The notes beneath the pieces were generated by a model. That model did not search any database. It saw only the letters and a program-made list of their open reading frames with translations, and had not been told where the DNA came from. Position numbers and translations under genes: made by a program. From Candidatus Woesearchaeota archaeon (GTDB taxonomy: Archaea; Nanobdellota; Nanobdellia; CAZCWL01; CAZQAZ01): a stretch of 64,000 bases of DNA. Of the stretch, positions 35,875 to 57,800 are shown piece after piece (within the stretch, counting starts at the first letter, position 1; each line of letters opens with the position of its first letter). The DNA lies in assembly GCA_964591855.1 (NCBI GenBank), contig CAZQAZ010000001.1, positions 7,591-71,590 of the forward strand, given 5' to 3'.

Positions 35875-36018
35875 TTAAATCTTGTTGTTGCATTCTTCAC
35901 ATACGTATACTTCCTTACCTTCTGTTTTAATTACATACTTTGCTTCATTCTTACAGTAATGACATTTTCTCCCCTTTTCTTTTAATTCTTCTCTGACTAA
36001 ACCTCCATTTATTTGCAT
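35875..36018 (-). CDS. Small zinc-ribbon protein (47 aa), not in the ORF track.
   Basis: Translated by hand as MQINGGLVREELKEKGRKCHYCKNEAKYVIKTEGKEVYVCEECNNKI. CxxC-x17-CxxC pattern. Lies immediately upstream of rnp4 on the same strand. Too short to identify (RpoP-like and other Zn ribbons are possible). Confidence 0.3.
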   Translation of the reverse strand: MQINGGLVREELKEKGRKCHYCKNEAKYVIKTEGKEVYVCEECNNKI

Positions 36019-36097
36019 GAGTTCTTCACCTCAAAACCAAATCAAATTTGAAGAAAGTGTTAGAGCATTGCCCTTTCCCTCGCTATGGGAAGTACTC

Positions 36098-36175
36098 GGG
36101 CAATCGTCTTGCGGCTTAACTTCCGTGGTCGAGACGAGAACGGGTGTTTCCCGCAAGACTATGGCCCTAACATTT
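36098..36175 (+). ncRNA. Candidate structured small RNA (hairpin followed by an ACA trinucleotide) in a roughly 200-nt gene-free gap.
   Basis: gggc(aatcg)tcttgcgg-[35 nt with internal ccgt/acgg pairing]-ccgcaaga(ctat)ggccc, then ta-ACA. This gives a 4-bp lower stem, a small internal loop, an 8-bp upper stem, and ACA 2 nt after the helix. It loosely resembles an H/ACA guide architecture. No C/D boxes and no SRP RNA motifs. Strand is uncertain. Confidence 0.15.
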
Positions 36176-36226
36176 CCTTTTACTCTAAAATCTTTTATAA
36201 AGATTTCTATCAATGCTTTATCTATG

Positions 36227-36910
36227 TTAGTTTTTATCTTCAAGTCTTGCTTTCTTGATCAAGAACATTCCTGCGGAGCCATCCCATACAGTTTCTGCTT
36301 CTTCTATTTTGATTCTCTTCTTGAATATAGGACCGTCTATAACAAGAGTTTCAAACTCCCCACCTTCTCCAGCAGTACATATATAGCAAGTGTTATGCAA
36401 ATCACAGAGTTGTTTAAATGCGAATAAGTCTATTTCCTTTCCAAGCCATTCTTTTTCTAGTCCACCAGCTGCCACACCTGTTATTATGATCTTAAATCCA
36501 GCCCCAAGAATGTCAAGCAAAAGTGTCTTCGGATCCTTATGCCACAATGGAGCTATAGACTCCAAACCCAACTCTTCACATATCTTATCTATTCTTGACT
36601 TTTGATATGTGGAAGCAATGGCCCCTGAAACAATACCTTCTATACCATACTTTTCTTTAGCTTCTTTTATTGCTTCTTTCAAATCTTCAAGCTCTTTTTC
36701 TTTCTCACCTTTTGTGGTTTTGAATATCTGAGGAATGCCTATTGCTTCTGCTTGTAACTTTGTAACCTCTATAGAAGGATAGTGAAACATGTAAGACTCA
36801 GGATTTAAAGGCTTAAGCGTTATTAAGACTACAACTTCATGCTCTTTCATGGCTTTGTACAAAGAATACACACTATCCTTTCCCCCTGAGAAAAGCACAC
36901 CAACTTTCAT
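36227..36910 (-). CDS. dph6: Diphthine-ammonia ligase (Dph6; MJ0570-family PP-loop ATPase).
   Basis: The PP-loop N-terminus MKVGVLFSGGKDS and the GIEGIVSGAIASTYQKSRIDKICEELGL and EGGEFETLVIDGP motifs are typical of the MJ0570/Dph6 family. Start ATG 36910 overlaps the stop of the upstream HAD gene (ATGA). The track extension to 36964 is unlikely. Confidence 0.7.
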   Translation of the reverse strand: MKVGVLFSGGKDSVYSLYKAMKEHEVVVLITLKPLNPESYMFHYPSIEVTKLQAEAIGIPQIFKTTKGEKEKELEDLKEAIKEAKEKYGIEGIVSGAIASTYQKSRIDKICEELGLESIAPLWHKDPKTLLLDILGAGFKIIITGVAAGGLEKEWLGKEIDLFAFKQLCDLHNTCYICTAGEGGEFETLVIDGPIFKKRIKIEEAETVWDGSAGMFLIKKARLEDKN

Positions 36911-37575: not shown

Positions 37576-37953
37576 ATGAGAGCCGTGGCAGGTATACTAA
37601 ATAACAATGGAATGGTGCTGATAGTGAGGTATAAGAATCCTATCAGAGAAGAGTACCAGTGGTTTTTCCCAATGGTTAAGTTAGATGAGGGCGTATCTCC
37701 AAAAAAGGAGATAAAAGAATACTTCAAGGAGAAGTTTAATCTCGATGTGGATATTACTGGAGACGTAATAAAGTTTGAGCCAAGTTATGATCCTGAGACC
37801 ATAATCTACATTTATCCACTTAAGATAAGTGGAGGATTCCTAAAGTCTTCAGGCGACTTTGAGATAGTTAAGTGGATAAACCCTAAAGAAGTTCCAAAGT
37901 ACTTCTCTGCAAGATTGACTTACAATATAAGTAAGTTTCTAGATCTTGAGTGA
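37576..37953 (+). CDS. Small hypothetical protein, possibly a divergent Nudix-fold protein.
   Basis: ATG 37576 (MRAVAGILNNNGMVLIVRYK...). The N-terminus resembles a Nudix fold start, but the Nudix box is not convincingly intact. The stop overlaps the tRNA-Arg(CCT) 3' end on the opposite strand. Confidence 0.3.
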   Translation: MRAVAGILNNNGMVLIVRYKNPIREEYQWFFPMVKLDEGVSPKKEIKEYFKEKFNLDVDITGDVIKFEPSYDPETIIYIYPLKISGGFLKSSGDFEIVKWINPKEVPKYFSARLTYNISKFLDLE

Positions 37954-38024
37954 GCCTGGCGGGATTTGAACCCGCGACCTGCAGCTTAGGAGGCTGCCGC
38001 CCTTCCAGACTAGGCTACAGGCTC
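37951..38024 (-). tRNA. tRNA-Arg(CCT).
   Basis: Minus-strand read gagcctgtagcctagtctggaagggcggcagcctCCTaagctgcaggtcgcgggTTCAAATcccgccaggctc + a. 7-bp acceptor stem, anticodon loop ctCCTaa. Confidence 0.85.
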
Positions 38025-39407: not shown

Positions 39408-39408
39408 G

Positions 39409-39481
39409 TGCTCCCGCCGGGATTTGAACCCGGGCCACACGGACCGCAACCGTGCGTTCTTCCAGACTATACTACGGGAGC
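39409..39481 (-). tRNA. tRNA-Arg(GCG).
   Basis: Minus-strand read gctcccgtagtatagtctggaagaacgcacggttGCGgtccgtgtggcccgggTTCAAATcccggcgggagc + a. 7-bp acceptor stem, anticodon loop ttGCGgt. The D stem has one A-A mismatch. Confidence 0.75.
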
Positions 39482-39708: not shown

Positions 39709-41790
39709 TTAGAAGAGAGTAGTCTGCCCTTCAGGAACAAGAGGGCTCTCCCTTAAGAGAGACTCTATTTTATACTTGTTTGATTTGTCTTGAAGTGGAA
39801 GGATTGTGTCTAAAAGTAAACCCACTTTACCACTCTTAAGGCTTCTCTTTCCATTGCTTTCCCTTCCAAAGAGACTATCCAATATCTCTTTGTGTCTTTT
39901 TACAAGAGGTACAACTTCATTCTTTCTCCTCCCCTTGATCTGGTTAGCTATAGACTTTTGCCTCTCTTTAAATAGGGAAGAGTAAACAAAGTAATCCATA
40001 CCAAGAGTAAACTCTTTAATTCTAAGTTCTTCGGGGACTCTTTCCTCTTTTAGTTCTTCTTTTATAACTTCAAGATAAGGAATTAAACTTTCTAGGTCGT
40101 TGTTAAAAACCATATTTAATACGCTGCCAAGGACTTGCTTCTCATAAGGAACTATGTAACCATAGTTCTTCCAAAAGTTTGCACCTATGGAAAATATCCT
40201 GCCTTTAGATTGGAAGAACACCACTCCCTTAGAGCACGATAACAAAACATCTGCAACATCGTATACAAAATAAGAATCAGATGGAATAACATCCTTAGCA
40301 AATAAAAAGTCCTTTGAGACATTTAAAACAACACTATCTTTGAGATCTTCCTTAAGTTTTTTCTTGTAGCTGTCTAATCTCTTTCTAAACTCATCTGGAT
40401 GAATTAAGTGCCTCTTGTAAAATTCTATATGTCCAAGTTCCCCACCTTCACACATCTCTAAGTCAAAAAGTAAGTCTTTAAGGAAGGCGCTGGCAACCTC
40501 TGTTTGAAGCACACCTTCCCCAAGAACATCTTCTAACCCAAAGAAGATGTCTCCTAGAAAAGAAAAGTTTGGATAAAGAACGTAAACGTCCTCAAACCTT
40601 CCTCTTATTATCTCTCTATTAAAGCTTTTCCAGACTTCTCTCATGAACTTCTCTTTAGGGTCAAATTTCTCGAACTTCTTTCTGTCAATTTGGTGTTTTG
40701 GTCTTGAGTAACCTAAGGACCAGAAGTATCTCTCCTTGTACTTCTGGACGAGCCTCTCATATGATGTTGCTCCAAATGTCGAAGGATCTACTCCCAAAGC
40801 CATGGACAAAGATAATACGTCTTCAATTATGTCCATGCCTATGCCGTAACTTAACTGCACATCTTTCATGTTGTACTCAAGTATTGTTCTTTTCGCTTCG
40901 TCGTTGCCCTCTAAAGCTTTCTCAAGATGGCGTGCAAGCTCTTCATGTGAAAGAGCTTTAGTATCGTTTTTCAGATATTCGGCAAGTGTGCTTAGCTTAG
41001 CATTTGGAAAAATCTTGAAGAGAGAAGGGATGTATGTATCTATGAGTATTCTTCCATCGAGCACAAGCTTTGGAGGGAAGAACCTACCTAATTTTTTTGG
41101 AGGTTTTTTGTTCGGTCCTATATTAAATCCTCTTGGATGTTTCTCCATAAGCTTTGGAAGATCGAAGCCTCTTAAGTTTTGATTCATGATTATTAATGGA
41201 TCAACTTTCATAACAAACCTTCTAAACTTTTCAATCAAATCCATCTCATTATCTGCGACAATAACACTGTAACTTGTATCAACTTCAAATTCTGTGGTGG
41301 TGTATATTCTTTCATCCACTACATCCCCATCTTGGGCAGTAAGCACAGCTATAGAATACACTTCGTCTTTAAAAGGATACTTTGTTTCTATGTCGAAGCA
41401 TAAGAGCTTATCATTTAGCAGATCTTCCAAACTCGCCTTACCAAGAACATTAAGATCATCATCGACAATCGATAGTGGAAAGCCAAGTTTCCACCTAAGA
41501 ATCTCTAAATAACTTGGCTTCTCTTTAGGGAAGCCCCTTACGAACCTTTTTCTTAAATCGAAATACCTTTTTGGAAGATTGACCTCTAGAGAGCGATTTG
41601 TAACACCTAGCTTTCTTTGTTTCATGAAGGCCTTTAGATTTCCATATGATTCGTAAAGCTCTTCAATTTTGGACTTTGTGTTGGGATAAGAATAAAAGGT
41701 GTATGGGATTCTATGGGGTAAAACTTTTGATTTGCCATAGTCCCTCAGAATGACTTCTTTGTTTGTCACACCCGTTAGTAGGTATTCCAT
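39709..41790 (-). CDS. Compact family-B DNA polymerase-like protein (693 aa). Exonuclease motifs are intact and motif A is present, but motif C is degenerate.
   Basis: Collinear with archaeal PolB. N-terminal IPYTFYSY. Exo I LLCFDIETKYPF. Exo II IIMNQNLRGFDLPKL. GRILIDTY then Exo III EYNMKDVQLSYG. Motif A-like EDVYVLYPNFSF with Asp retained. Motif B-like SIGANFWKNYGY. No YxDTD motif C was found; the nearest is VFNNDLES. Confidence 0.6.
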   Translation of the reverse strand: MEYLLTGVTNKEVILRDYGKSKVLPHRIPYTFYSYPNTKSKIEELYESYGNLKAFMKQRKLGVTNRSLEVNLPKRYFDLRKRFVRGFPKEKPSYLEILRWKLGFPLSIVDDDLNVLGKASLEDLLNDKLLCFDIETKYPFKDEVYSIAVLTAQDGDVVDERIYTTTEFEVDTSYSVIVADNEMDLIEKFRRFVMKVDPLIIMNQNLRGFDLPKLMEKHPRGFNIGPNKKPPKKLGRFFPPKLVLDGRILIDTYIPSLFKIFPNAKLSTLAEYLKNDTKALSHEELARHLEKALEGNDEAKRTILEYNMKDVQLSYGIGMDIIEDVLSLSMALGVDPSTFGATSYERLVQKYKERYFWSLGYSRPKHQIDRKKFEKFDPKEKFMREVWKSFNREIIRGRFEDVYVLYPNFSFLGDIFFGLEDVLGEGVLQTEVASAFLKDLLFDLEMCEGGELGHIEFYKRHLIHPDEFRKRLDSYKKKLKEDLKDSVVLNVSKDFLFAKDVIPSDSYFVYDVADVLLSCSKGVVFFQSKGRIFSIGANFWKNYGYIVPYEKQVLGSVLNMVFNNDLESLIPYLEVIKEELKEERVPEELRIKEFTLGMDYFVYSSLFKERQKSIANQIKGRRKNEVVPLVKRHKEILDSLFGRESNGKRSLKSGKVGLLLDTILPLQDKSNKYKIESLLRESPLVPEGQTTLF

Positions 41791-41810
41791 ATTAATTGGT
41801 CTCGAAAAAA

Positions 41811-41822
41811 CTTTAAATTTAT
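41811..41822. promoter_or_regulatory. TATA-like element in the 36-nt divergent gap between the PolB-like gene and ORF 41827.
   Basis: ctttaaattta. On the minus strand this reads taaatttaaag about 22 nt upstream of the PolB-like ATG (41790), consistent with a leaderless or short-leader transcript. Confidence 0.3.
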
Positions 41823-41826
41823 TCCG

Positions 41827-42771
41827 ATGTGGAGTTTTATGTCCAGAGTCCCAAGAGCATGGAGATTCTCAGATCCAACTAAATGGGAAAGAATTACTCC
41901 AGTTGAACCTTGTGCTAAGTATCCTAGAAGTAAAATAGAATGGTACATGGAGGTCAACAACAACCATAAGTCAAGAACACCCAGGATTTATTCCATATAT
42001 GAGGACTTATTCGAGCAGAACTTAGGGAAGCTAGAAGAATACGAGGTTATTTTTATAACAGGTCTATCTCCAGACCTAACAGAGGTTCCAAACCCATTTG
42101 GCTTCTATCCCAAAACAAGGGGTTTAGACTTGTTCCAAGATCAGAATAGACTGTCGAATGAGATAATGAAAATACATGCAGAGCTTGGGCCAGAGAAGCT
42201 TGAACACATACTTTACTTCCCTATTGCTCCGATAAGTATGCCTGCAAGAATAAAAAAGAAAGGTGATCTTTTGATTTTAGAGCATCCACTAAGGGAAGTC
42301 GTGGACGAGGCCAATAGGAGAAATGGCAGGGGGTTTGGAAGGACGTATAAGATACTAGACCTAAAAAGTAAAAGGTTTGATCTCACACCACACCTTGGTA
42401 ATTATGAATTCTCAAGGTTTTATTATCAGAAGCCACAAAGTGGGCGAGATTTTTACGATGATAATGAACCACAAATATATGAGATATGCAGAAAGTACGA
42501 CATAACCAGAGATGAGCTGCCTTATCTTGTTGGGCTGGCAAGATACATTCACAGGAGAATGTTGGGTGAGAGATTAAAAAGATATGTAGACATTCTTGGA
42601 CTTGAAAACCCACCATTGTATGCCTTAAACACATCTTATGCTTTTGACGTGATGAAAGATGTAGCTTGTACTTCACTTAAGATTGGAAGAAACTTGGAAT
42701 TTCCACACTTAGGCGAGGCGGAGCCATCGGCTCTTAATGTGCTGAAAGGTTATTTGGAGGAGTTCATATGA
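41827..42771 (+). CDS. Hypothetical protein, first gene of an operon divergent from the PolB-like gene.
   Basis: 314 aa, no recognisable motifs. Stop overlaps the next ORF start (ATGA). Confidence 0.45.
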   Translation: MWSFMSRVPRAWRFSDPTKWERITPVEPCAKYPRSKIEWYMEVNNNHKSRTPRIYSIYEDLFEQNLGKLEEYEVIFITGLSPDLTEVPNPFGFYPKTRGLDLFQDQNRLSNEIMKIHAELGPEKLEHILYFPIAPISMPARIKKKGDLLILEHPLREVVDEANRRNGRGFGRTYKILDLKSKRFDLTPHLGNYEFSRFYYQKPQSGRDFYDDNEPQIYEICRKYDITRDELPYLVGLARYIHRRMLGERLKRYVDILGLENPPLYALNTSYAFDVMKDVACTSLKIGRNLEFPHLGEAEPSALNVLKGYLEEFI

Positions 42772-43838
42772 AAAAGTGTCCACACTTTCCATTTATGTGT
42801 GACAGGAATGTGTGTGTTAAGGACGATGATAGATATACATGTGGGTATGATCTACTCAGTCTTTTAGACGAAGAAGATGTTAAGCTATTTGAAGACGATG
42901 CAAAGAAGAATGGGTACCTTGCTTTTCCAATAGAGCTTGGCTTGGCGATGCTGAGATACACTAGTCCAGATGTTTTCTTAGAGGATGGAAAGTCTATCTC
43001 GCTTAGAAAAATATTGGAGGACTATCCCATCTATCCACATGAGATAACTTCTGGAGTAGAACATGAGAAGTATAATTTAACAGCCAGCGAGTTCAATACA
43101 CCTTGTGTGCTTTCAAGAATAATCCAAAAGACAAACTTGGATAGCAAGAATGTCTATGCAAGAATAGGAAGGGTAATACACTTCTTGATGAATGAGCAAT
43201 TGGACAAGCTAATACACAATGAAACACTTTTGAGGATGGGGGCTCCAGCTATGGACAGAAGGATGTATTGTGAAAGAACCTTGGAGTTTGTACACAAAGA
43301 CATCATTGTTCATGGCCATCCTGATGCAATGTTTGAAGTCAAAGACATGCTTGGAGTTTTTGACAACAAGAGATCTATGCATGTTAAGCATACTTACTTT
43401 ACACAGGAGACCATCTACGCCTTAGCCGAAGATCCAAATAGGGAGAGATACTTATTAGTAGTTGCTACTAGACCATATGGTGAGATAGAGTTTGCTGAGA
43501 GACTCCCTAACTTAGATGTAGCTTTGATAAGGAGAGGTGGAGAGGTTATAAGGAGAACACTTAAGGACATAGAAGAATCTTATATGAGACAAGCAGAACT
43601 TTTAAGATCAGATAACCCATTTAAACACGTAAACAAAAGGAACTGCGTAACAAGCTCTGGACCATGTTTTAACTATGAGATATGTAAAGAGCTGTACAAT
43701 CTATGGAGGATTGAGAGAACAGAGCTTATAGACTTGCTAAATGACAAATACACTGAGGAGGTTATGGTTGATAAAGGCTTCCTTGAGAGGGGAAAACACA
43801 TATTACCAAAGAAGCTGGCCCTTCCGCAAGATTTATAA
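42768..43838 (+). CDS. Cys-rich putative PD-(D/E)xK nuclease (Cas4/RecB-like) (tentative).
   Basis: 356 aa. N-terminal Cys cluster CPHFPFMCDRNVCVKDDDRYTCGY. Candidate nuclease motifs IIVHGHPDAMFEVKD / VFDNK (D...D/ExK) and QETIY (QxxxY). C-terminal C-x5-C-x5-C (NCVTSSGPCFNYEIC). The layout resembles Cas4/AddB-type Fe-S nucleases, but this rests on motifs only. Confidence 0.35.
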   Translation: MKKCPHFPFMCDRNVCVKDDDRYTCGYDLLSLLDEEDVKLFEDDAKKNGYLAFPIELGLAMLRYTSPDVFLEDGKSISLRKILEDYPIYPHEITSGVEHEKYNLTASEFNTPCVLSRIIQKTNLDSKNVYARIGRVIHFLMNEQLDKLIHNETLLRMGAPAMDRRMYCERTLEFVHKDIIVHGHPDAMFEVKDMLGVFDNKRSMHVKHTYFTQETIYALAEDPNRERYLLVVATRPYGEIEFAERLPNLDVALIRRGGEVIRRTLKDIEESYMRQAELLRSDNPFKHVNKRNCVTSSGPCFNYEICKELYNLWRIERTELIDLLNDKYTEEVMVDKGFLERGKHILPKKLALPQDL

Positions 43839-43846
43839 TTCTGCAC

Positions 43847-44131
43847 GTGAGACATTTCTTGATGGAGAAGGAAAATCTTGAGATGGAAGTCCTAAAGGAT
43901 AGTATAAGCGTTAGCGTAGAGGGCTTATTACTTCCAAGATACACTTTGGAATATCTCTTACGTGTTAAAGTGAATGGAAAAGATTACCTTGTGAAAGAGG
44001 AGAGGAAGGCATATACTTACTTAGGTATGAGGTGGTATATCGAGAAAAAGCTTTCCACCTATGGGGATGAAGTGTATAAAAAGGCGCTGAGGTTACTTAA
44101 TGAGGAATGGAAGAAGTGGAATAATTTTTAG
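43847..44131 (+). CDS. Small hypothetical protein.
   Basis: 94-aa ORF completing the 41827-44131 co-directional cluster. Confidence 0.35.
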   Translation: MRHFLMEKENLEMEVLKDSISVSVEGLLLPRYTLEYLLRVKVNGKDYLVKEERKAYTYLGMRWYIEKKLSTYGDEVYKKALRLLNEEWKKWNNF

Positions 44132-46586: not shown

Positions 46587-46606
46587 CTTATAAATATTTA
46601 TAAAGG
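46587..46606. promoter_or_regulatory. Palindromic A/T TATA-like element in the divergent secF / envelope-operon intergenic region (possible bidirectional promoter).
   Basis: cttataaatatttataaagg; the core ttataaat|atttataa is a perfect 16-nt palindrome. It sits about 25 nt upstream of secF ATG (minus strand) and about 22 nt upstream of ATG 46627 (plus strand). Confidence 0.4.
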
Positions 46607-46626
46607 TGGAGCTTCTTGTAAGAAAT

Positions 46627-47838
46627 ATGAGAAAAGCGTACAAAGCTGCTCCTCTGATCGTTATAGCCATGGCGGGCATGATAATATTCTACCTTATTAT
46701 GATATACCCAACAGAAAGAGCAGAGTTATTGGGTTATTTACATAACAACACATCAATTGGACAGCAGTATATACACACGCGTTCTGTTACTCCCGGGGCA
46801 ATAGTTGATACTTACTCTAGTATAGGGTATGTTGGGCAGGCAATGGGTCAAGAGTTAGATAAGATAGTGATATCCAAAGTAGATTTGGAGTACCCTTTAG
46901 TCAAAACTCAAAAAAAAACTGTTTCTTCTTTTGTTTTGACTTCAAACATACTAAGAGCAACGCCCTATGAGACTTATGTAGACATAGAACCCTCAGCAAG
47001 CAGTGCTGAGGTTGAGATAGATATTGGAGACGTTTCTGGAACCCCAAAGCTTATAGTGGAATTCAATGGCAATACAATATTTTATTCATCTGTTCAATCT
47101 GGTGAGAAGCTTAAGATAAAAGTTCCAAAGTCCATGCTATCAGCAGTTAACACTCTGACTTTGCGTTCAAAGTTTGTTGGCGTGAACATATTCTCAACGC
47201 AGACAATTACAGTGCAAGAAGTGAGAGTTTACTCCATAATGTATGATCCTTTAAGAGCAAAGGATAGTTATTACAGAGACTTAAGTGTGGATCCAAAGGG
47301 TTTTGGCTCAATGGTTTTATCCTTTGGCACCACTTCTCTTGGGGAGGCAGCTAAGGTAAAGATCACACTCAACGGAAAGACCATCTTTAATAAAGTTCCA
47401 AATGAATTAGAATCCATGAGGAGTGGCCTTGTTGGAATACCCTTACGTAAAACAAATAACTTAATAACATTCGAAACAGAGAAGGGAGGAGTTTACACTT
47501 TAGACAATGTTAAGTTCTCATTCTATGCTGAAAAGACAGGTAGGGCTCAGCAAAAAATAGTATTTGATGTCCCAGCGGATGTTTTTGCTTACGATAAAAA
47601 TGTTACAATAACTGCTTACATCGGTGAGGTTTTAATACCAGGTACTTTGGAGTTCAACTTAGAGTACCCAGGTGTTTCTTACATAGCTGACATAAGCTCA
47701 AAACCTGGACCTGTTACAGTACAAATAGAAGATCCACAAACAGAGTTAAGACCTTATGGTAACTTGTTAATCTTAGATTCTCCAGATGGAAGGTTTAGAG
47801 TCGATAAGATTGAGATAAAAGTAGAAGATGTTGAGTGA
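46627..47838 (+). CDS. N-terminally anchored extracellular protein (hypothetical), first gene of a 6.5-kb envelope-protein operon.
   Basis: ATG 46627 (MRKAYKAAPLIVIAMAGMIIFYLIMIY, TM). The track start GTG 46606 lies only about 5 nt from the palindromic TATA, so ATG 46627 is preferred. The large ectodomain has sequons. Confidence 0.5.
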   Translation: MRKAYKAAPLIVIAMAGMIIFYLIMIYPTERAELLGYLHNNTSIGQQYIHTRSVTPGAIVDTYSSIGYVGQAMGQELDKIVISKVDLEYPLVKTQKKTVSSFVLTSNILRATPYETYVDIEPSASSAEVEIDIGDVSGTPKLIVEFNGNTIFYSSVQSGEKLKIKVPKSMLSAVNTLTLRSKFVGVNIFSTQTITVQEVRVYSIMYDPLRAKDSYYRDLSVDPKGFGSMVLSFGTTSLGEAAKVKITLNGKTIFNKVPNELESMRSGLVGIPLRKTNNLITFETEKGGVYTLDNVKFSFYAEKTGRAQQKIVFDVPADVFAYDKNVTITAYIGEVLIPGTLEFNLEYPGVSYIADISSKPGPVTVQIEDPQTELRPYGNLLILDSPDGRFRVDKIEIKVEDVE

Positions 47839-49904
47839 GTATGGCTAAGAAAGGTATCAAGGACATAATAAAGGAACATCCTGAAGACATAATAGGGATG
47901 GCTGCAGCTCCAGAAGCTGCAGCACCTAAGCTTGTGAAGGATGTACTTGAGACTCAGAAGGAGACTGCTGAGGCTGAGAAGAAAGCAGCCAAAGCTAAGG
48001 AGGCTGCCGCGAAAAGTCAACCCTCTGGAGGTGGAGGAGGTTCTTCTGGTGGTGGATTTGGCGGTGTAGGTGGGGGAAGATTTAATAGAGTAGGCATTTG
48101 GGCAGGTTTAGGTATAGTTTTTATATTTATCATAATTATACTTATAGGAGCGATGGTCCCAACTGCAAGACATATGCTCTCCACACAAGGGAGCTTTAGC
48201 TTTGGGCTAGGAGAACTCATAAAACAAATAGCAGGTATTTCTGTAGTTGGACCCGTTGAGACGGAAAAGGAAGTTAAATCCGGACCAACACTAGCTACAA
48301 CACCCTTCTATTCATTTAGGATAGATTCTGTAGAAGTATCTCCAATGAAAGGGCAGATGTTCTTCCCAGGTGGTTCTGTAACAGCTAAGAACTTTGACAT
48401 AGAAAAAGGAAGCACATACGAAGTTAGGAAGGCAGGAGAGACAATACTAACCAAAACTGCAAGTGAGAGTATCACAGCCCAAGCTGCCTGTGACTCTGCT
48501 GTTAATGAGCTAAATGGTGATGATAACCCAGACAACGATGTCACACCAGATGATATAGTCGTAGTTTATAGTGGTATGTACTATCCTTGTGGCGATGATC
48601 ATGAAATAAAGTATATAAGCTCGGAAGGTGCAGGCCAAACTTTTTCCATCAGAGTTCTTGTTAGGAATACAGGAGACAAAGAGGCTGACAATATGACTTT
48701 AGTTATACTCCCAAAGCCAAAGGATTCGTGGTGTAACATTGGCGGGGAGGATAAAATGTTATATAAGCTTGGTTCTGGAGAGTCAACAGAGTTCTGTGAC
48801 ACAGTATACCTAGATGAGAGTGGAGGTTATACTAACTTCGACGCGTGTGCTAAAAGCTTTACATTGGAGAAAGCAGGTACATACTTCTCATCTTGTAAAG
48901 TTAAGTTTGGATGCGTGAATAACTTTGTAGGGAAAGTCTCGGGGATATTTGAGAATACAGGTTGTGAATGTGACCCTTCGGCTGAAGAAGGATGTGGGTG
49001 GTTAAATAATGTTTACACTCCAAATGTTTATGCAAGACTTGTTGGACCATACGTCTCTACAACAAGACTTGATATACAGTTCATGGATGGAGATTATTAT
49101 GACATCCTCACGAATCAAAACTTGTTTTATCCGTTTGTAAGAACTGCTACTAATTCTTGGGGTGCAGTAACTCTTTATCTTGATACAGCAAGTGAAAAAC
49201 AGCCAATCTTATCCTTTAAGAGCGCTCCTATGGATACGTTCACTTTAAGAGTAAAATACGATGTCCCTCAAAAGAAAAGTGGAAGAATATTAGAGCCATT
49301 TACTGAGAACATACCAGGAACCAAGTCAGCAACGTATGGAGACATACAAAAGATCTTGAATAGAAAGAACAGTGATGTATGGCCATGGGAAGGTGATGCA
49401 ACCACAACTTTCAACAAGTACTACAAAGAAAGACTATACATGTTGATACCATCTACACTTTTGTTCATTGGGACTCCTTATGAGAATCAGTTTAAACACA
49501 AAGGAGGTGAATTTAAGAATAGCATAGTGATTAACAATTTGGTATGTGGAGACTATGTGTATGATAAACTTTGTGATCAAAATTCAGACGAATATAAAAA
49601 CTTCATAAGTAGAAACCTTGAGTTTAAGAAGGTAGCAGACAGTTACTGTAGAGAAACTGCTAAGTCAAATGATGGGGAATATAAAGGTATAGGTTACCTC
49701 GTTTGTGAGGTTTATGATGGCAAGATAGGAAACATTGACTACGAGTTAAAGGAAGGTGAGGAATATCAGTTCCCACTTCATGTACCTAACTTGAATGGAG
49801 AATCTGTTAACAGAGTGACATACTTAATAAGGGCTGATTTATTATACTACTTTGTATATGAAAAGGACCAACAAAATCCAATTGTTATATACAGCAAAAT
49901 TTAG
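47835..49904 (+). CDS. Membrane protein with A/E/K-rich and Gly-rich cytosolic N-terminus, single TM and large Cys-containing ectodomain (hypothetical).
   Basis: 689 aa. GTG 47835 overlaps the previous stop; ATG 47841 is an alternative start. SGGGGGSSGGGFGGVGGGRF, then TM IWAGLGIVFIFIIIILIGAMV, then a roughly 580-aa ectodomain. Confidence 0.5.
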   Translation: MSMAKKGIKDIIKEHPEDIIGMAAAPEAAAPKLVKDVLETQKETAEAEKKAAKAKEAAAKSQPSGGGGGSSGGGFGGVGGGRFNRVGIWAGLGIVFIFIIIILIGAMVPTARHMLSTQGSFSFGLGELIKQIAGISVVGPVETEKEVKSGPTLATTPFYSFRIDSVEVSPMKGQMFFPGGSVTAKNFDIEKGSTYEVRKAGETILTKTASESITAQAACDSAVNELNGDDNPDNDVTPDDIVVVYSGMYYPCGDDHEIKYISSEGAGQTFSIRVLVRNTGDKEADNMTLVILPKPKDSWCNIGGEDKMLYKLGSGESTEFCDTVYLDESGGYTNFDACAKSFTLEKAGTYFSSCKVKFGCVNNFVGKVSGIFENTGCECDPSAEEGCGWLNNVYTPNVYARLVGPYVSTTRLDIQFMDGDYYDILTNQNLFYPFVRTATNSWGAVTLYLDTASEKQPILSFKSAPMDTFTLRVKYDVPQKKSGRILEPFTENIPGTKSATYGDIQKILNRKNSDVWPWEGDATTTFNKYYKERLYMLIPSTLLFIGTPYENQFKHKGGEFKNSIVINNLVCGDYVYDKLCDQNSDEYKNFISRNLEFKKVADSYCRETAKSNDGEYKGIGYLVCEVYDGKIGNIDYELKEGEEYQFPLHVPNLNGESVNRVTYLIRADLLYYFVYEKDQQNPIVIYSKI

Positions 49905-49932
49905 GTGATGCGAAATCAAGAAAGAACTCTTT

Positions 49933-51024
49933 GTGTTTGGAGTGGTTTTGGTAGCCATGCTTGTAATGGGCTGTATAGGTGTTGGTCCGACTGAAGAAAA
50001 GGAAACAGTCCTTAGACCAAATCAAGGTGTTGGCGTCGTACCTGGTGGAGTTTATGTTTTAGACTCCAAGGTAAAGCCTGGTGCTATAACATCCGTAGTT
50101 GTAAAAGTAAGAAATAATTTAGAAGGACAGCCGGCTAATAACATAGTAGTTACTTTAGATAATGTAGCCCCCCTAAGAATACTTTGTAGGGGTGGAAGTG
50201 GTGCGGTGGAAGAGTTCTTTGATAACTTCCCAAATTATAAAGAGGGATACGAAGCTTGTGGAAGAGATTACTCTCTAGACTTAGATTCCAATTTAAAACT
50301 TAATCAGCATGGTGTGGTTAAACTTGATCCTGGAGAGGAGGTTGAGTTTATCTGGCCAATACGCACGCCGGACAGAGCAGTTCTCGCAGGAATGAAATAT
50401 GAGCACACTCTTTACTACACAATAGATTATGACTACAAGCTTAAAGCACAGGAAAGTATTGTTTACCTATCAAACCAAGAGTACTTGAGATTGAAGCAGG
50501 AGAACAAAACCTTAAATTATCCATCAACATTTAGACAGACAGCAGGTGAGTTCAAGCTCTACCCACAAACTGTTAATCCATTCCTTTACTATCCATCGCA
50601 AGGTATAGCCCAAGTTGCATCCATTAACTACAACATAGAAAACAACGGAGACGGATTCATACCTCCAGATTCAAAGCTTGTTATAGTTCTTCAGTATCCT
50701 AAAGAGATGGAACCTGACGAAACTTACTCTGAAAAGAGATGGATAAAGGGAACAGACTTAGATAATGAGAGAATCAAATCCATATTGAAGCACTTCCCAG
50801 ACATAAACTTAAATAGAATACTTTACAAAGAACTTGATCCTTCCTTCTTAAGGAAGGGCTTTAGGTATCCAATCTCTGCACCTTTAACTCTAACTCAAGA
50901 CGAGCTTAACTCCCTTATAGAAAATAGCATCCCTAGTAAAACTTATAATATTCAAGTTTATGTATTTTATAAGTACAGGTTTGAAAAATCAAGCAAAATA
51001 ACGATCTATCCTGTAGAAATATAA
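49933..51024 (+). CDS. Putative lipoprotein with CARDB-like N-terminal domain.
   Basis: 363 aa. Signal peptide with lipobox-like LVMGC. GGVYVLDSKVKPGAITSVVVKVRNNLEGQPANNIVVTLDN resembles a CARDB fold signature. Confidence 0.5.
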   Translation: MFGVVLVAMLVMGCIGVGPTEEKETVLRPNQGVGVVPGGVYVLDSKVKPGAITSVVVKVRNNLEGQPANNIVVTLDNVAPLRILCRGGSGAVEEFFDNFPNYKEGYEACGRDYSLDLDSNLKLNQHGVVKLDPGEEVEFIWPIRTPDRAVLAGMKYEHTLYYTIDYDYKLKAQESIVYLSNQEYLRLKQENKTLNYPSTFRQTAGEFKLYPQTVNPFLYYPSQGIAQVASINYNIENNGDGFIPPDSKLVIVLQYPKEMEPDETYSEKRWIKGTDLDNERIKSILKHFPDINLNRILYKELDPSFLRKGFRYPISAPLTLTQDELNSLIENSIPSKTYNIQVYVFYKYRFEKSSKITIYPVEI

Positions 51025-51037
51025 GGAGGAAAAAAGA

Positions 51038-51994
51038 ATGAGAAATGAAATAATTGTTTTTGTGGCAGCCATACTAGTGCTTTCAGTAATGTACGGTTGT
51101 GTAGACGTTAAATCTTTTATACCTGGCGGAGAGAAGGAACAACAGCAGCAACCAACAGGCGGTAGAGTAGAGTACTCTAAGGCTGTTTTTGGGGAGTCAA
51201 TGGATGTGACAGAACTTTATCCCGGACAAGCAACAACTCTCTTAGTAACAATTAATAACACATGGGAAAACCCTATCAAAAATGTAAAGATTCAGTTGAA
51301 GGGAGCAAGCTTTGTAGTCAGCAGTAGTGTTTTGGACACGATGGTAAGCGTTGACAAGAAAGAAGCAACAGTAAACAATGTAAACCCTGGAGCTTATTCC
51401 CAAAGATCTTTTGTGATAAGAGTTCCAAGAAAGTTAGTTGAGCGAGTAAATGTTTACCCAAGAATCTGCTTCGACTACAATCAAACAATAGCTAAGGACA
51501 TCGTCCTTGTCCCAGACTCAGCAACACAAGTTACCACACCCTCACATTACACAAATGAACCCCTAAGTGTTAGGATTCCAACAAATAAAATACTAGCAAC
51601 AGAGTCTATTGTTGGTGAAGGAGGAACAGAGTCATACTTAAGTTACACAGTTGGTGCACAAAGCGTTGATAGCATTGAGAAGCTTTACAACTTCACATTT
51701 GATATAAGTACAGACGATTACTTGGGAGGCATTAACAGCATATCTCTTGCAGAACTTTCTTCGGACAATGGAGACTTTGCTTGTGAGGAGTACACGTTCA
51801 CAGATGATCAGAAAAGAGAAAGGTGTTACCTTACTAAAGAATACGAACCACAGATAAAAACATTATCAGGAAGTGTAGCAGTAAGCATTGATAATCCAGT
51901 AGAGTCTGAAACATATGAAAACGTAGAGATTGTAGCAGAAGGAAGGTACTGTGTCAACCTTCCAACTATAACAATAAATGTGAAGAAAGTATGA
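51038..51994 (+). CDS. Putative lipoprotein with CARDB-like domain; paralog of the next gene.
   Basis: 318 aa. Signal with SVMYGC. LYPGQATTLLVTINNTWENPIKNVKIQLKG. Shares the (P/A)RICFDY motif with ORF 51991. Confidence 0.5.
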   Translation: MRNEIIVFVAAILVLSVMYGCVDVKSFIPGGEKEQQQQPTGGRVEYSKAVFGESMDVTELYPGQATTLLVTINNTWENPIKNVKIQLKGASFVVSSSVLDTMVSVDKKEATVNNVNPGAYSQRSFVIRVPRKLVERVNVYPRICFDYNQTIAKDIVLVPDSATQVTTPSHYTNEPLSVRIPTNKILATESIVGEGGTESYLSYTVGAQSVDSIEKLYNFTFDISTDDYLGGINSISLAELSSDNGDFACEEYTFTDDQKRERCYLTKEYEPQIKTLSGSVAVSIDNPVESETYENVEIVAEGRYCVNLPTITINVKKV

Positions 51995-53142
51995 GCCAGA
52001 AAAACCTTTTATTTTTTATTATTTTAATTTCAGTAGTGGTTATTCTATCAGGTTGTGTTAACCCTCCAAAGACCGAAGAGAAAGAAGGACCAAGTTATAT
52101 TCCTTCTGTCTTCTCAGCTAATTTAACATTCAGTAAACCTTTAAGTGGGGGAAGACTTGTCTTAGCACCTGGAGAGCAAGTCACTGCATATCTTACATTC
52201 GCCAACAAGGGTAACGCTCCAGCAAGAAATGTTAAGGCTATTCTTTATGGATGCAACTTAGATATCAGTTCGAACACAGGTGAAGAGGTATATACTTTAG
52301 ATAGTGTTAATCCAGACGATACGAAGACACTAACGTGGCAGATTGTAGTCCCTGAGGACTATACTGGCAAATGTTCACTCACTGCAAGAATTTGTTTCGA
52401 CTACACAACAGAAGGATATAAAGAGATTGAGATAGGAAAACAAGGAGAGGTGTCTTCAAGTAGGAGTGTGGAGTACACAAGCCCAGGCCCTATAAACTTA
52501 TCTTTCAACTTTGCAGATAGATATGTGGTATACAAAGATTACTCTCCCATAACCTTTAAGATCAAATACAAGAATGTTGGTGGAGGAAGAATACAATACG
52601 TTGGAGAGCCAGATAAGACAGATCATGTTGACTACATAGAAATGACTGTAAGAGACGGTGCAGCTTTCTTAGGCGGCGACTTCAGTGAATGGACGCATGT
52701 TGAAATCCCAAAGTACTACTCCAGTTTACAAGACGCATTCTATAAGGAAGAATTTGTACCAGCAGGACTATCTGGAGAATACAACTTCGAGCAGGTATTC
52801 AATAGAGAAGTATATGACATGTACATAAAAGATAAATACACTACACCAGAAGATATTCTCGAGCAGGAAGAAGTTGACTTTGGATTCTACACAATGAACT
52901 ACACACTCAGTGAAGATAGTCCAGCATGGAACTTGAGCATGTGGTATGATGAGGACCACGAAGGTAAAGGTTGGGCGGATAGGAACGAGCTTAAGTTTGT
53001 GGGTAATACCTTAGAAAAGAGAGCTACTTTTTATATTAATAAGTCAGCTGTAGAAGGATCTGAAACATTCAATGTTGGTACCAAAATAAAGTATTCTTAC
53101 TGTATTACAACAGGGACAACAAGTGTTGTTGTAGAAGAATGA
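51991..53142 (+). CDS. Putative lipoprotein with CARDB-like domain; paralog of the previous gene.
   Basis: 383 aa. Signal with ILSGC. LAPGEQVTAYLTFANKGNAPARNVKAILYG, ARICFDY. Start overlaps the previous stop (ATGA). Confidence 0.5.
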   Translation: MSQKNLLFFIILISVVVILSGCVNPPKTEEKEGPSYIPSVFSANLTFSKPLSGGRLVLAPGEQVTAYLTFANKGNAPARNVKAILYGCNLDISSNTGEEVYTLDSVNPDDTKTLTWQIVVPEDYTGKCSLTARICFDYTTEGYKEIEIGKQGEVSSSRSVEYTSPGPINLSFNFADRYVVYKDYSPITFKIKYKNVGGGRIQYVGEPDKTDHVDYIEMTVRDGAAFLGGDFSEWTHVEIPKYYSSLQDAFYKEEFVPAGLSGEYNFEQVFNREVYDMYIKDKYTTPEDILEQEEVDFGFYTMNYTLSEDSPAWNLSMWYDEDHEGKGWADRNELKFVGNTLEKRATFYINKSAVEGSETFNVGTKIKYSYCITTGTTSVVVEE

Positions 53143-54063: not shown

Positions 54064-54800
54064 TCTTCAAGCACCTTGAACTCCAAACCTTCTTTTTTTG
54101 CATTTGTCTCCAAGCATTTGATTATGTCTTGCATCATTTTTTCTCCTTCCTTATAGCTCTTTGCCGTCACTTCTATATTGTACTTTGGAGACGCAACAAC
54201 TGTGGCCTTGGCTTTACCGAGGCATGCTTTGAACATGGACTTAAGCTTCTCCACACCATCTCCTGCAAGAGTTGTAAGCTCAACGAGTCTTCTTACTATT
54301 ACTTCTTTCTCTTTAAGCTGATCTTTTATGAAAGCATAAAGTTTTTTCTTGTGCTTTGTTTTAAGCTCATCGAGTACCTCGTCCCCAAACTCTTTTATTG
54401 AGTCGTAGAAGTTACTATACGAGCCAAATGTGGTTAGAATTTCATTCTTTATGCTTTCGACTTCTTTCTTCTCTATCTTGTTCTCCTTAGCAAACACATC
54501 TATTAGTTTGTCTATCTTTTTATTGAGTTTCCTCTCCTGAAGCTTTCTCTTTCTCTCACCAGAGCTTACCCTCTTAAGCGAGGCAATGACTTGATTCCCT
54601 TTTACATCAACAACTTTTAGTACTACGATTTGACCTTCTCTTACAAAGCTTTTAATGTTCTTTACCCACGACGATGAGATCTCAGATATGTGTACAATAG
54701 CTGTAGAGTCGTAATTCTCTAAATCAGCAAAGAAACTATGTGGTGTGATTTTCTTTACAACACCTATTACTACATCTCCTCTCCTTGGAAGTTTTGCCAT
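54060..54800 (-). CDS. eif2a: Translation initiation factor 2 alpha subunit (aIF-2alpha).
   Basis: 246 aa. N-terminal S1 domain (GDVVIGVVKKITPHSFFADLENYDSTAIVHISEISSSWVKNIKSFVREGQIVVLKVVDV), then helical and alpha/beta C-terminal domains. Conserved eif2a-nop10-PAC2 order. Confidence 0.75.
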   Translation of the reverse strand: MAKLPRRGDVVIGVVKKITPHSFFADLENYDSTAIVHISEISSSWVKNIKSFVREGQIVVLKVVDVKGNQVIASLKRVSSGERKRKLQERKLNKKIDKLIDVFAKENKIEKKEVESIKNEILTTFGSYSNFYDSIKEFGDEVLDELKTKHKKKLYAFIKDQLKEKEVIVRRLVELTTLAGDGVEKLKSMFKACLGKAKATVVASPKYNIEVTAKSYKEGEKMMQDIIKCLETNAKKEGLEFKVLEE

Positions 54801-54882
54801 ACCTATTGTACGATAACAGGGAATATAAATCTTACTAAATTTTCCGGTAATATTTATATAGCAGAATTGTTCTATATCACTA

Positions 54883-57800
54883 TGGACTTATATAAAAACA
54901 TCTTTTCCTTGGTTGCTTTTCTCATTTTACTAGGAGCAATATTTGCAACTTCGGATGTGGATAGTATATCTTTTGTACCTACTTATTCTTCTGGACATTG
55001 CGGGGATACTTTAGTTTCTGGAGATGTCATAACAGAAGTCGTGAACATATCTGTAGCTCATTCAGGAGATTCTATTTACAATGCAACTATTAAATTACTC
55101 AATACGACACAGAGTGATTTTATAATTAATCAAGTTTTATCGAATCCTGAGAACTTGACATGTACAAAGCAAAGTGATTATGTGATAGAGTGTGTAAATA
55201 GTACAGATTCAGGACTGGTTTCGGCTGTCCCATTAAATATCTCTTTGAATATGAGTATTAATAGGAGCAGCTTGTGTTCTCTTGATAAGGTTTTCACGTA
55301 CACATTTGAAATAAATTTAACGAACAAAACAAGTATTATTAATGGGTCAAGTGATGTGCTTCAATTAGATGCACAAAAGCCTTATTTCGCTGGGCAGATA
55401 AACATTCTGACACAATACCCGAATGTGTCTTATTATAATGGTTCCGTTTATTACATAAAAGGTGGCTACAATGCAAGTATAGCTTCAGATGATGCATTTT
55501 CTGGTATAGCAAGTTGTAATTATACGATTAATGCATCGGGGCAACCTGTTGTTTGGGCACTTTCTACATATAATGGAACACATTGTGTAGTTTCTGATAT
55601 CTCATTTGGCTCGGAGACAGAGCACTTATTAAGCTTTAGGGTTAGGGACAAAGCATTTAACTTTAATGAGAGCTCTGCTGTTACATTAGTGGAAGACGTC
55701 TCACCACCCACTATAGATTTTGTAAGTCCGGTATTAACGTATGTTGGTTCCGGCAAACTCTTAAAGGTAAACGTAACTTTTGTGGATAAAGGATCTGGTG
55801 TAAATACAAGTTCTGTACTCATAACAAATAATGAATCCCTACCGTTTGTAGGAAGTACACAGTGTACTTCTGGTGCAGGCGTTGTTTATTGTAATAATTC
55901 TATTGATACATCCGGTTTTGCAGGTATGTTGAATATAAGTGCATCGATTAAGGATAATGTCCAGAATGCAAACCTATCAAGTGTGGTTGTAAAGGTATTG
56001 CATGTTAGGGTAGACAATATTACAGACCAGGATAATAATGTGCAGAGCTTAGTTGGTCTTGCAACAAATTGGGTAAAGCTAAAGGTGAACGCTACGAATA
56101 ATACGCAGATTGGTGTTAATATCACTCATAAGGGGATATGTTTAGGTCAAGATAATGTGCCTATGCAGTATAATGACACCACTGGTTTATGGGAATATAA
56201 TTGTAGTTTAAATCACTCGGCTATGGTATCTGGGGAACAAAATGTTTCTGTGTTTGTATACCCTCTTGTAGACGAGAATGCAATAAATGATACAAGAAAC
56301 TTCACAATAAACTATGATGACCAGAGACCTGTTGTTGTATTTGACTGGTGGGACACTGAAGATATAGATGGTAGTAGTGTTAGAATACCTTCTCCTTTAT
56401 CTATACTCAGTAATCCAGACTTCTTTTTCTCACCGAATGATAATGAGATATGGTTTGCTGTCAATGTTACAGACAATATTGGGATTGATAGAGTGGTAGT
56501 TAACTTAAGTTCGATAAATATGTCCAATCCTGGAAATACATGCTATGGTTTGCTGGATCTTACGTACAATAGCACTACATCGTTGTGGGAAGGAAATTGT
56601 TCACTAGGTGTATTCAACGAGAGTGATTTGAACAGGAATGATCCATATGGTGGGCCATTACAATCATCAGATATAATCATATCTGTGTACGACACTGCTG
56701 GTAATGAGAACTGGTTTTATAATTCAAGCGGTACTGAAACGAGCTCCATACAAAGCGTTTGTCCGTATGGGATTAACCCACAAGACTACCCTGAATGTTT
56801 GCAGCCATTTATACCAGTAATAATACATGACTTAGGTACTCCAAATAGTTTAGACCCATGTATGCATTTTGGTCCCGAAACTACAAACTTTAATAATGTT
56901 CTCAATTTCTCAAGTGTTAACTTAGTACTTGAAATACAATTGAACATGTCTTGCTTTGATCCATCCCTACCAAGTGACTTTATAACTATGAATAAATTTG
57001 AATTCCAGTCATTGGACTTCTTTGACCAACAGACAGTAGCAAAGATGAGCTTGCTTCCTTCGGCTTTACAGGTGAATATTACGCCCCCAGGAATGTTCGG
57101 AGACTCAAGAATTTATATAAATTCAACTTTATTCTCGGAACTCAATACGAATTCAACTATAACTTTGTACCACCTTCCATTTATTTCCATGCCTACCATA
57201 GTTGCAGACCCCGGAGCTAGGGGTTATAATCAAACTAGCATTAGTTGGGTTTCAGGCTATGATCCAATATTTGGAGTTTGGACCGGAAATCTAACATTTA
57301 AGGTATATGGATTCTCAGGATATAATATAACAGATAATACACCCCCAACTATAGAATTTAATTATCCATTGAATAATACGAAGTACATGCCACCCGTTAA
57401 CAATGTTAATGTAACTATTAATGGTACGGGTACTCCATTAAGCTTTGTGAATATAACTCTCGATACAGCAAGTTATATTTACAATGCTACAAGTGATGTA
57501 AATACCGCTAATTGTACCTCTGCTAACAATGAGACATTTTATTGTAACCTAACAGACTTAGGAATAGAGTCTGGAACGCATACGGTCAGGGTTGTGGCCT
57601 ATGACTATGGTGGAGAATATCCAGGAAATAATAATTCATCTGAAATAAGTTTTTCCATAGACTCGATACCTCCAACAATATCTAACATAAGTGTTTCCAA
57701 CATAACTAATTCTTCTACTGCAATAATCTTTAGTACGAATGAGTTATCAACTTGTTTTGTTAAGTTTGGGGAGTCCAGTAGTCTTGGAGAGCTAACACCT

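Follow-up and report, generated by a model that had tools for sequence, protein, structure and literature searches.

A family-B DNA polymerase paralogue of DPANN archaea with a conserved 3'-5' exonuclease site, lost polymerase motifs and two divergently encoded partner genes

Analysis of a 64,000-nucleotide (nt) stretch from a Candidatus Woesearchaeota archaeon (assembly GCA_964591855.1, contig CAZQAZ010000001.1, positions 7,591 to 71,590; the whole stretch is called the window below) revealed a divergent relative of the family-B DNA polymerases (PolBs). The gene, at positions 39709-41790 of the minus strand, encodes a protein of 693 amino acids (aa) from an ATG start, which has the PolB fold, keeps the 3'-5' exonuclease site and has lost the polymerase motifs. 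It belongs to an apparently undescribed family of DPANN archaea that combines a seemingly live exonuclease site with lost polymerase residues. We consider it likely that this PolB-like protein is a repurposed PolB paralogue, a 3'-5' exonuclease on a dead polymerase scaffold, which works with the products of two divergently encoded genes (named X and Y here) in DNA repair or end processing. A first-pass annotation, made from the sequence alone, had proposed an exonuclease-competent but polymerase-impaired PolB paralogue, and the comparison of 85 family members supports that proposal: as judged from the alignments, six exonuclease residues are present in 85/85, and no carboxylate is conserved in motif A or C. 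Beyond that annotation, the analysis adds a DPANN-wide family, a nuclease operon that appears to be its conserved functional partner and whose two genes have been fused twice, and a tail resembling a clamp-binding peptide.

The family emerged only through an exhaustive HMMER search against 1.84 billion representative proteins (203 matches at E<1e-3); word-indexed homology searches retrieved very close relatives only, and the genome and metagenome locus scans gave no locus for alignment A1 and one, from an 'uncultured archaeon', for alignment A7. When all retrieved proteins were scored with a family hidden Markov model (HMM) and with a canonical one, they split into 103 and 51, respectively. 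None of the motifs A, B and C can be recognised in any of the best 57 matches (E<1e-10); canonical PolBs, with DxxSLYP, KxxxNSxYG and YxDTD, rank only below E~1e-10 in the HMMER list. The family comprises at least 85 non-redundant full-length proteins, and the conservation counts given below refer to 85 such members, at about 20% identity to the query, unless another number is stated. The named members are all from DPANN archaea: one Candidatus Aenigmarchaeota protein ('3'-5' exonuclease'), and two from Candidatus Woesearchaeota and one from a 'DPANN group archaeon' that are all called 'hypothetical protein'. For the member P0003, '3'-5' exonuclease' is the product name given by NCBI.

The open reading frame (ORF) is intact on the minus strand, as the first-pass annotation had it. 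Its first ~125 residues (41416-41790) form an N-terminal domain of strands and helices in the AlphaFold2 model; the phmmer alignments to Pfu PolB start at residue 18 or 33, and P29-Y30 is paired with P36-Y37 of Pfu. The string PYTFYSY at residues 29-35 contains the N-terminal FYxY block that had been noticed before, and the Exo I and Exo III strings named with it are also present. The exonuclease domain, of DEDDy type, occupies approximately residues 126-360 (40711-41415, minus strand). It is matched by Pfam DNA_pol_B_exo1 (PF03104; 31 bits against a cut-off of 23, residues 128-217) and by the NCBIfam Pol II model (41 bits against an equivalog cut-off of 570 bits, residues 128-316), and it is the only part of the protein that curated libraries detect. 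Exo I is FDIET (residues 132-136, 41383-41397), in which D133 and E135 are invariant in 37/37 sequences of a smaller alignment and in 85/85 of the larger one. Exo II, NQNLRGFDLPKL (residues 203-214, 41149-41184), contains D210 (85/85); the NxxxxGFDLPKL string described earlier is indeed there, but the functional Asn is N205 (78/85) and not N203. Exo III is YNMKD (residues 306-310, 40861-40875), with Y306 and D310 both 85/85. The sixth invariant residue, K278 (40957-40959, 85/85), falls in the hhalign column of the invariant K293 of the canonical PolB alignment, and we take it to be the auxiliary exonuclease-site lysine of the Kx2h motif. All elements of a DEDDy exonuclease (Exo I DxE, Exo II Nx3(F/Y)D, Exo III Yx3D and the auxiliary Lys) are found in the sequence. 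Because this site is invariant, we infer that the protein is a 3'-5' exonuclease.

The picture is reversed in the palm-fingers-thumb region (approximately residues 361-686, 39733-40710, minus strand), which is degenerate and contains no invariant residue at all, hence no invariant acidic one. At the remnant of motif A (G397-RFEDVYVLYPN-408, 40567-40602), hhalign pairs G397-R-F-E-D-V-Y-V with the canonical G-L-Y-x-N-V-x-V, so that the Asp-bearing F-D-F-K-S segment is deleted or replaced; in an ungapped reading, Y406 stands at the position of the catalytic Asp. An LYP string with its Asp retained had been reported for this motif. The string is present (DVYVLYPN, 401-408), but the apparent retention of Asp is a coincidence of spacing, as D401 lies at the canonical Asn position and is variable (gap 30, N 17, D 13, E 8 and G 7 among the members), being Asn in P0002, an orthologue with 43% identity. 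Motif B (KxxxNSxYG, dNTP binding) aligns with a short, non-conserved segment, and the K/N/Y-G pattern occurs in 0/57 of the best matches; a counterpart of the KxY motif was sought in the alignments to canonical PolBs and none was found. At motif C, the canonical V-I-Y-G-D-T-D-S-V-F aligns with L-N-V-S-K-D-F-L-F in the query and with I-N-Y-S-x-x-F in the family. The remnant hairpin (V488-LNVSKDFLFA-498, 40297-40329; model strands 487-491 and 496-499) is three residues shorter than the canonical one by hhalign and has no conserved Asp: position 493 is K in 20, D in 17, N in 15 and G in 13 members, position 494 is N in 14, D in 12, R in 11 and K in 11, and F495 is conserved. The missing YxDTD of the first-pass annotation is borne out, since there is no DTD anywhere in the C-terminal half and the hairpin is shortened in the profile alignment. 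Taken together, the alignments suggest that the family has exonuclease activity and has lost polymerase activity.

The degenerate half is nevertheless part of a PolB fold. By phmmer against PDB sequences, Thermococcales PolBs (Pfu/KOD) are matched with E values between 3e-10 and 1e-7, in alignments that start at the N-terminus and end near residue 375-487. When hhalign compared the family profile with that of 19 canonical PolBs (probability 99.9%, E 4e-34, 555 columns), the match extended across palm, fingers and thumb as far as the C-terminus, and for this reason the C-terminal half is a diverged polymerase domain rather than unrelated sequence. An AlphaFold2 model built from a 37-sequence alignment reached a predicted local distance difference test score (pLDDT) of 89.7 and a predicted template modelling (TM) score of 0.86; that alignment was required, as a 3-sequence alignment gave pLDDT 35. 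Foldseek aligned the model end to end with the KOD, 9°N, Tgo and Pab PolBs (best E 5e-27, ~750 aligned columns, TM ~0.6), and viral PolBs were structurally farther than the archaeal B3 enzymes (best viral E 4e-22). Judged from model and sequence, the protein has the full architecture of the family-B polymerase superfamily, with N-terminal domain, DnaQ-like exonuclease and palm/fingers/thumb. The likeness to PolB along the whole length, claimed earlier from the sequence, is in this way upheld; the two findings that would have spoken against the first-pass annotation, an intact DTD or the want of any PolB profile match, were both looked for, and there is no DTD and the profile and fold matches are very strong. 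The smaller size pointed out there is likewise real: the Thermococcales PolBs have 774-775 aa, ~80 more than this protein.

A short protein without polymerase motifs could be a decaying pseudogene or a mis-annotated PolB fragment, but this explanation is effectively refuted. The frame is intact, the fold is predicted with confidence, and at least 85 full-length relatives are alike. Comparison with the orthologue P0001 (GCA_053993735.1, 97% identity) gave a ratio of non-synonymous to synonymous substitution rates (dN/dS) of 0.19 overall, 0.186 in the N-terminal and exonuclease half and 0.195 in the polymerase-like half, with small counts (28 synonymous and 21 non-synonymous differences). The orthologue P0002 aligns from end to end, with conserved blocks GxIVPYEK, SGKVG and PEGQT in the C-terminal half. 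Both halves of the gene are under purifying selection, and the dN/dS value together with the full-length conservation of P0002 excludes a pseudogene.

The most serious of the rival explanations is that the protein is a divergent but active DNA polymerase, for translesion synthesis or gap filling, with non-canonical catalytic residues in the manner of PolB2/Dpo2 or piPolB; the piPolBs are without the first Asp of motif C. The palm-fingers-thumb fold is whole and under purifying selection, and several residues of this half are conserved across the family (N490 in 70/85, E550 in 69/85, G536 in 72/85, and D443 as D in 43 and E in 15). MAFFT can place D401 of the window protein on the motif A Asp and D494 on the second motif C Asp, so that both metal-ligand positions can be aligned with an acid; from this placement, some residual polymerase activity of the window orthologue is still conceivable. 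There is also a precedent, as PolB2 was judged dead from its motif loss and was later found to be a weak translesion polymerase (PMC7544198, PMC8764526). Nevertheless, we regard an active polymerase as unlikely: positions 401, 493 and 494 vary freely in a half that has no invariant acid, the closest orthologue (P0002) has Asn at 401, the K/N/Y of motif B and the KxY motif are missing, motifs A and C carry deletions, and the invariant residues are exactly those of the exonuclease, which is the reverse of the PolB2 pattern.

The comparison with PolB2/Dpo2 is instructive also in other respects. Each is a paralogue of PolB in which the polymerase site has degenerated, each has two partner genes and a proposed role in repair, and both coexist with other polymerases (putatively so here). 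In PolB2 (group B2/G2), Exo I is not conserved and Exo III is absent, motif C keeps one Asp together with a His and a D(K/R) motif, the enzyme polymerises, and the partners are PPB2 (arCOG07300; ~90 aa, helical) and an inactivated RadA (PMC7544198, PMC4104785, PMC11791011). Membership in PolB2 was rejected on the published description of that group: in the present family Exo I and Exo III are invariant, neither Asp nor His is conserved in the motif C hairpin, and X (~300 aa) and Y take the place of those partners; no RadA/Rad51 match was obtained for any neighbouring gene of the loci examined. The remark of the first-pass annotation that the exonuclease domain is retained here, unlike in the inactivated PolB families described so far, is in agreement with this contrast, as the invariance of Exo I and Exo III is the opposite of PolB2. 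With the archaeal B3-type PolBs (Pfu, KOD, 9°N, Tgo, Pab) the family shares the five-domain fold, Exo I/II/III, the auxiliary Lys, the N-terminal P-Y and the position of the C-terminal QxxL; it differs from them in lacking the motif A Asp, KxxxNSxYG, YxDTDS and KxY, in being ~80 aa shorter and in being paired with X and Y.

The shared C-terminal position is occupied in the query by Q689-T-T-L-F693 (39712-39726, minus strand), the end of the sequence ...PEGQTTLF, which resembles a clamp (PCNA)-binding peptide; relatives end, for example, in HQLKLF, KQLNLF, EQLSLF or AQLKLF. The Q is found in 25/37 and the L in 29/37 sequences of the 37-sequence alignment, and hhalign pairs the tail with the canonical C-terminal QxxLxxF. 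A complete QxxLF tail is present in ~22-31 of 88 members, mostly closer relatives, and may bind PCNA. Such a tail on a conserved but dead polymerase domain raises the possibility of a non-catalytic replisome scaffold like the C-terminal PolB module of Pol epsilon, in which the exonuclease motifs would be kept for folding only. Three loci lie among housekeeping genes (L008, L011 and L012, beside ribosomal-protein operons, EF-1alpha or aIF5B), and a fused primase and a GINS-like gene are encoded in the window, which would suit that explanation. We find it distinctly improbable, since five DEDDy residues plus the Lys, invariant in 85 sequences at ~20% identity, are the signature of a working site, the exonuclease motifs have decayed in both Pol epsilon-C and PolB2 (PMC2669801, PMC7544198), and the constant partner Y is a nuclease and not a replisome component. 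The Pol epsilon module, with disrupted exonuclease and polymerase motifs and a Cys-rich Zn-finger C-terminal domain (PMC2669801, PMC7544198), is alike in keeping the PolB fold after the loss of polymerase catalysis; assignment to this type was rejected because the exonuclease is intact here and the C-terminus is without a Cys-rich domain.

The nearest analogy in logic is found outside PolB. One report (PMC12926913, with its ref. 46) describes non-canonical prokaryotic PolX proteins that have lost polymerase activity and kept a PHP 3'-5' exonuclease, with a repair context proposed; the fold is unrelated (Pol beta-like plus PHP, against PolB plus a DnaQ-like DEDDy domain). Our literature search, incomplete in coverage so that an earlier description is possible, retrieved nothing on a PolB family with an active exonuclease and a dead polymerase. 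A published PolB survey removed sequences without a recognisable polymerase domain, and for that reason the family may be missing from the B1-B10 scheme.

The first-pass annotation had also noted that the gene is divergently paired with a putative nuclease operon, and this pairing proved to be conserved. Gene X (41827-42771, plus strand, 314 aa; 310 aa in the database version, which starts at 41839) is followed by gene Y (42768-43838, plus strand, 356 aa), with a 4-nt overlap between the stop of X and the start of Y. The genomic contexts of the window and 11 other family members were compared, giving 12 distinct loci (the close relative L002 was counted with the window). With HMMs built from the window genes, X and Y homologues were found divergently adjacent to the PolB-like gene in 10/12 loci: the window (with L002), L001 (where X is cut by the contig end), L003, L004, L006, L007, L008, L009, L011 and L012. 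These loci span Aenigmarchaeota, Woesearchaeota and 'DPANN group' metagenome-assembled genomes (MAGs). Two of them encode X and Y as a single fusion protein. The L007 fusion (3597-5873, minus strand, 758 aa) was matched by hhalign to X at E 3e-28 and to Y at E 2e-34; the L011 fusion, from a Woesearchaeota MAG (7459-9945, minus strand, 828 aa), lacks the N-terminal four-Cys cluster of Y. The two fusions belong to two different subfamilies of the PolB-like family. By Rosetta-stone reasoning, natural fusions of this kind are evidence for joint action of X and Y.

The spacer between the divergent starts is as compact as it is recurrent, measuring 46-55 base pairs with a TATA-like centre in seven loci. 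In the window (41791-41838), the central element TTTAAATTTA (41812-41821) lies ~23-26 nt away from both the start codon of the PolB-like gene and the X ATG at 41839. The spacers of other loci are at 7949-8000 (L003), 7955-8000 (L004), 5951-6000 (L006), 5950-6000 (L008), 9946-10000 (L011) and 9951-10000 (L012), and L003, L004 and L008 have GATAG in common just upstream of the TATA-like element. This arrangement fits a single putative bidirectional archaeal promoter giving leaderless transcripts.

Y is a Cas4/RecB-like nuclease of the PD-(D/E)xK type. Its core, H184-P-D186 ... D199-N-K201 ... Q213-xxx-Y217 (43317-43418, plus strand), is present in 8/9 Y copies, with D186 invariant. Three C-terminal cysteines (C293, C300 and C306; 43644-43685) together with C113 make up the 1+3 arrangement of Cas4, so that both the D ... 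(D/E)xK ... QxxxY core and the 1+3 Cys pattern of Cas4/RecB-family nucleases are found, and an N-terminal cluster of four cysteines (C4, C11, C16 and C25; 42777-42842) keeps its spacing in 8/9 copies. These cysteines may be metal or iron-sulphur ligands. Several members gave repeated weak matches to Cas4, PDDEXK_1 and AddA/RecB nuclease models, always under the curated cut-offs (Cas4 TIGR00372, best 26.5 bits against 65; PF01930, 17.4 against 22.7), there are no nearby cas genes, and a PDB profile search with Y gave nothing significant. Since the core signature is present and the scores stay below the cut-offs, Y is placed in the RecB/Cas4 superfamily and not in Cas4 proper. It shares the (H/R)xD ... 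hDxK ... QxxxY core and the 1+3 Cys pattern with Cas4/RecB/AddB/Dna2-type nucleases, and differs from Cas4 in the extra N-terminal four-Cys cluster, in a linker of ~100 residues, in having no CRISPR association and in being always coupled or fused to X. In the L008 copy of Y (3747-4898, minus strand) the order of the HMM matches is permuted (1-101, then 198-317, then 97-197) and there is no contiguous nuclease core, which means that the gene is rearranged, that the assembly is at fault here, or that the pattern is an artefact because this copy is poorly placed in alignment A5. Immediately behind the window Y lies an ORF of 94 aa (43847-44131, plus strand; 88 aa in the 97% relative L002), which has no family match and was not seen after Y at other loci.

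No family could be detected for X. Neither the window protein nor its database version (P0156) had a match in Pfam, NCBIfam, PADLOC, PHROGs or the PDB sequence profiles. D101 is its sole invariant acidic residue, and because only this one among the acidic residues is invariant, X seems more suited to be an adaptor than an enzyme.

The neighbourhoods of the family point to repair. Base-excision or end-repair genes lie within a few genes of the PolB-like gene in 5/12 loci. In L004, an AP (apurinic/apyrimidinic) endonuclease gene follows 32 nt downstream on the same strand; AP endonucleases are also found in L006 and L009, HhH-GPD glycosylases in L005 and L006, Ogg in L009, a uracil-DNA glycosylase in L003 and PolX in L006, and L005 has LigD_N and another RNase-H-fold exonuclease. 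The positions of these genes are 10018-10794 in L004; 1-722, 1202-2917 and 8124-8723 in L006; 1-222 and 9027-9845 in L009; 12585-13145 in L003; and 12292-14130 in L005. The types encoded there include AP endonuclease 2 and a PolX with a PHP domain. For genomes of such small size, repair neighbours look enriched.

An alternative is a system of defence against viruses or plasmids made up of the three genes, or the remnant of a mobile element, in which exonuclease and Cas4-like nuclease would degrade foreign DNA. Y gives a weak match to an Argonaute-associated Cas4-like nuclease model of PADLOC besides those to Cas4, a part in defence or repair has been proposed for the solo-Cas4 proteins of DPANN (PMC5704561), the proteins of the three genes are highly divergent, and a tRNA gene lies 227 nt away. 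We disfavour this explanation and hold it to be improbable. PADLOC had no match for the PolB-like protein or X, and for Y there were weak Cas4-type matches only. Library scans detected no integrase or Cas1 among the neighbours at the window locus, GC content is uniform with no compositional anomaly around the locus, and no repeats were seen, though no dedicated repeat search was made. The neighbours are housekeeping and repair genes and not defence islands; the module occurs in several lineages of DPANN and its promoter architecture is conserved, which looks like vertical inheritance; and the greater structural distance of viral PolBs points the same way. For the same reasons (no Cas1 or integrase among the neighbours, uniform GC, housekeeping contexts), assignment to the PolBs of casposons, piPolBs or other mobile elements was rejected.

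The two tRNA genes next to the PolB-like gene, noted in the first-pass annotation, are both tRNA-Arg on the minus strand, downstream of it (39408-39481, the nearer one, and 37950-38024). Conserved adjacency to tRNA was not observed at the other loci, and a role of the tRNA as an integration site was rejected, there being no integrase, no compositional break and no such adjacency elsewhere.

The window itself is a piece of archaeal chromosome, with genes for aIF2-alpha, an IF-2B family protein, ribosomal protein L15e, 5S rRNA, SecDF, diphthamide synthase, a fused PriS-PriL primase and a GINS-like protein. The primase is a 422-aa ORF (59443-60711) that matches both DNA_primase_S and DNA_primase_lrg, and the GINS/Sld5-like gene (60708-61253) follows with a 4-nt overlap; fused primases are typical of nanoarchaeal and DPANN lineages. 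The 5S rRNA gene is at 36057-36172 (minus strand, Rfam 66.7 bits), and because they overlap it, the ORFs 36017-36427 (plus) and 36031-36243 (minus) are spurious. A HerA-like ATPase gene (613-1905, minus strand; DUF87 and HerA_C) was identified, and NurA, Mre11 and Rad50 were not recognised among the scanned window ORFs. Three giant ORFs occur at 2461-15552 (4363 aa), 19240-26352 (2370 aa) and 54738-59147 (1469 aa); Beta_helix, NosD and Ig-like domains are found in the first, probably a surface protein, and neither of the others has a Pfam match. Beside SecDF there are five co-directional genes (46606-53142, plus strand; 410, 689, 363, 318 and 383 aa) to which almost no family could be assigned and which are kept in L002 (1-5164).

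Returning to the repurposed exonuclease, this interpretation is built on the observed fold, loss and retention of motifs, family-wide conservation, purifying selection, synteny and X-Y fusions; beyond these, it supposes that the proteins would form a physical complex and would take part in repair. Besides the alternative placement of D401 and D494 and the PolB2 precedent, several observations count against it. L005 and L010 are without X and Y beside the PolB-like gene, and the upstream genes of L005 are neither of them. The QxxLF tail is limited to about one quarter to one third of the members. The repair neighbourhood comes from a small sample of 12 loci, and a function cannot be assigned to X.

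We suggest the following mechanism. The dead palm/fingers/thumb would hold duplex or primer-template DNA, as canonical PolBs do in editing mode, and in many members the QxxLF peptide may tether the exonuclease to PCNA-loaded 3' ends. The compact bidirectional promoter would co-regulate the PolB-like gene with X and Y. X may serve as an adaptor, with X and Y forming one unit that is probably in physical association with the PolB-like protein, and Y, as a Cas4/RecB-like metal-cluster nuclease, would cut the 5' strand, ends or flaps. This set, probably a housekeeping one, could then trim damaged, mismatched or blocked 3' ends, or process both strands of an end, and would probably be linked to base-excision repair. 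More tentatively, the three components may constitute a hitherto undescribed, vertically inherited DNA-processing machine of DPANN archaea, made up of a clamp-tethered, stand-alone exonuclease derived from an ancient PolB paralogue with the dead domain as a sensor of DNA junctions, X and Y, which would replace repair or proofreading functions of reduced genomes. Candidates for the functions replaced are proofreading in trans for polymerases without an exonuclease, cleaning of 3'-blocked ends in base-excision repair, and end resection by two nucleases.

At present, annotations of family members say no more than 'hypothetical protein' or '3'-5' exonuclease', and owing to the match of the PolB exonuclease domain they could be miscounted as replicative polymerases in genome reconstructions. 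The family appears to be the inverse of the known inactivated PolBs, with a perfect exonuclease site, polymerisation discarded and the polymerase fold preserved. This points to a so far unexplored role of the PolB scaffold, that of a platform which binds DNA junctions for a nuclease. A phylogenomic study of Cas4 assigned no function to the solo-Cas4-like class of DPANN; the coupling to the PolB-like gene would give a first functional context to one class of these nucleases and to the orphan family X. DNA repair in DPANN archaea is poorly understood, and the constant coupling with X and Y marks out a candidate new repair module in this group.

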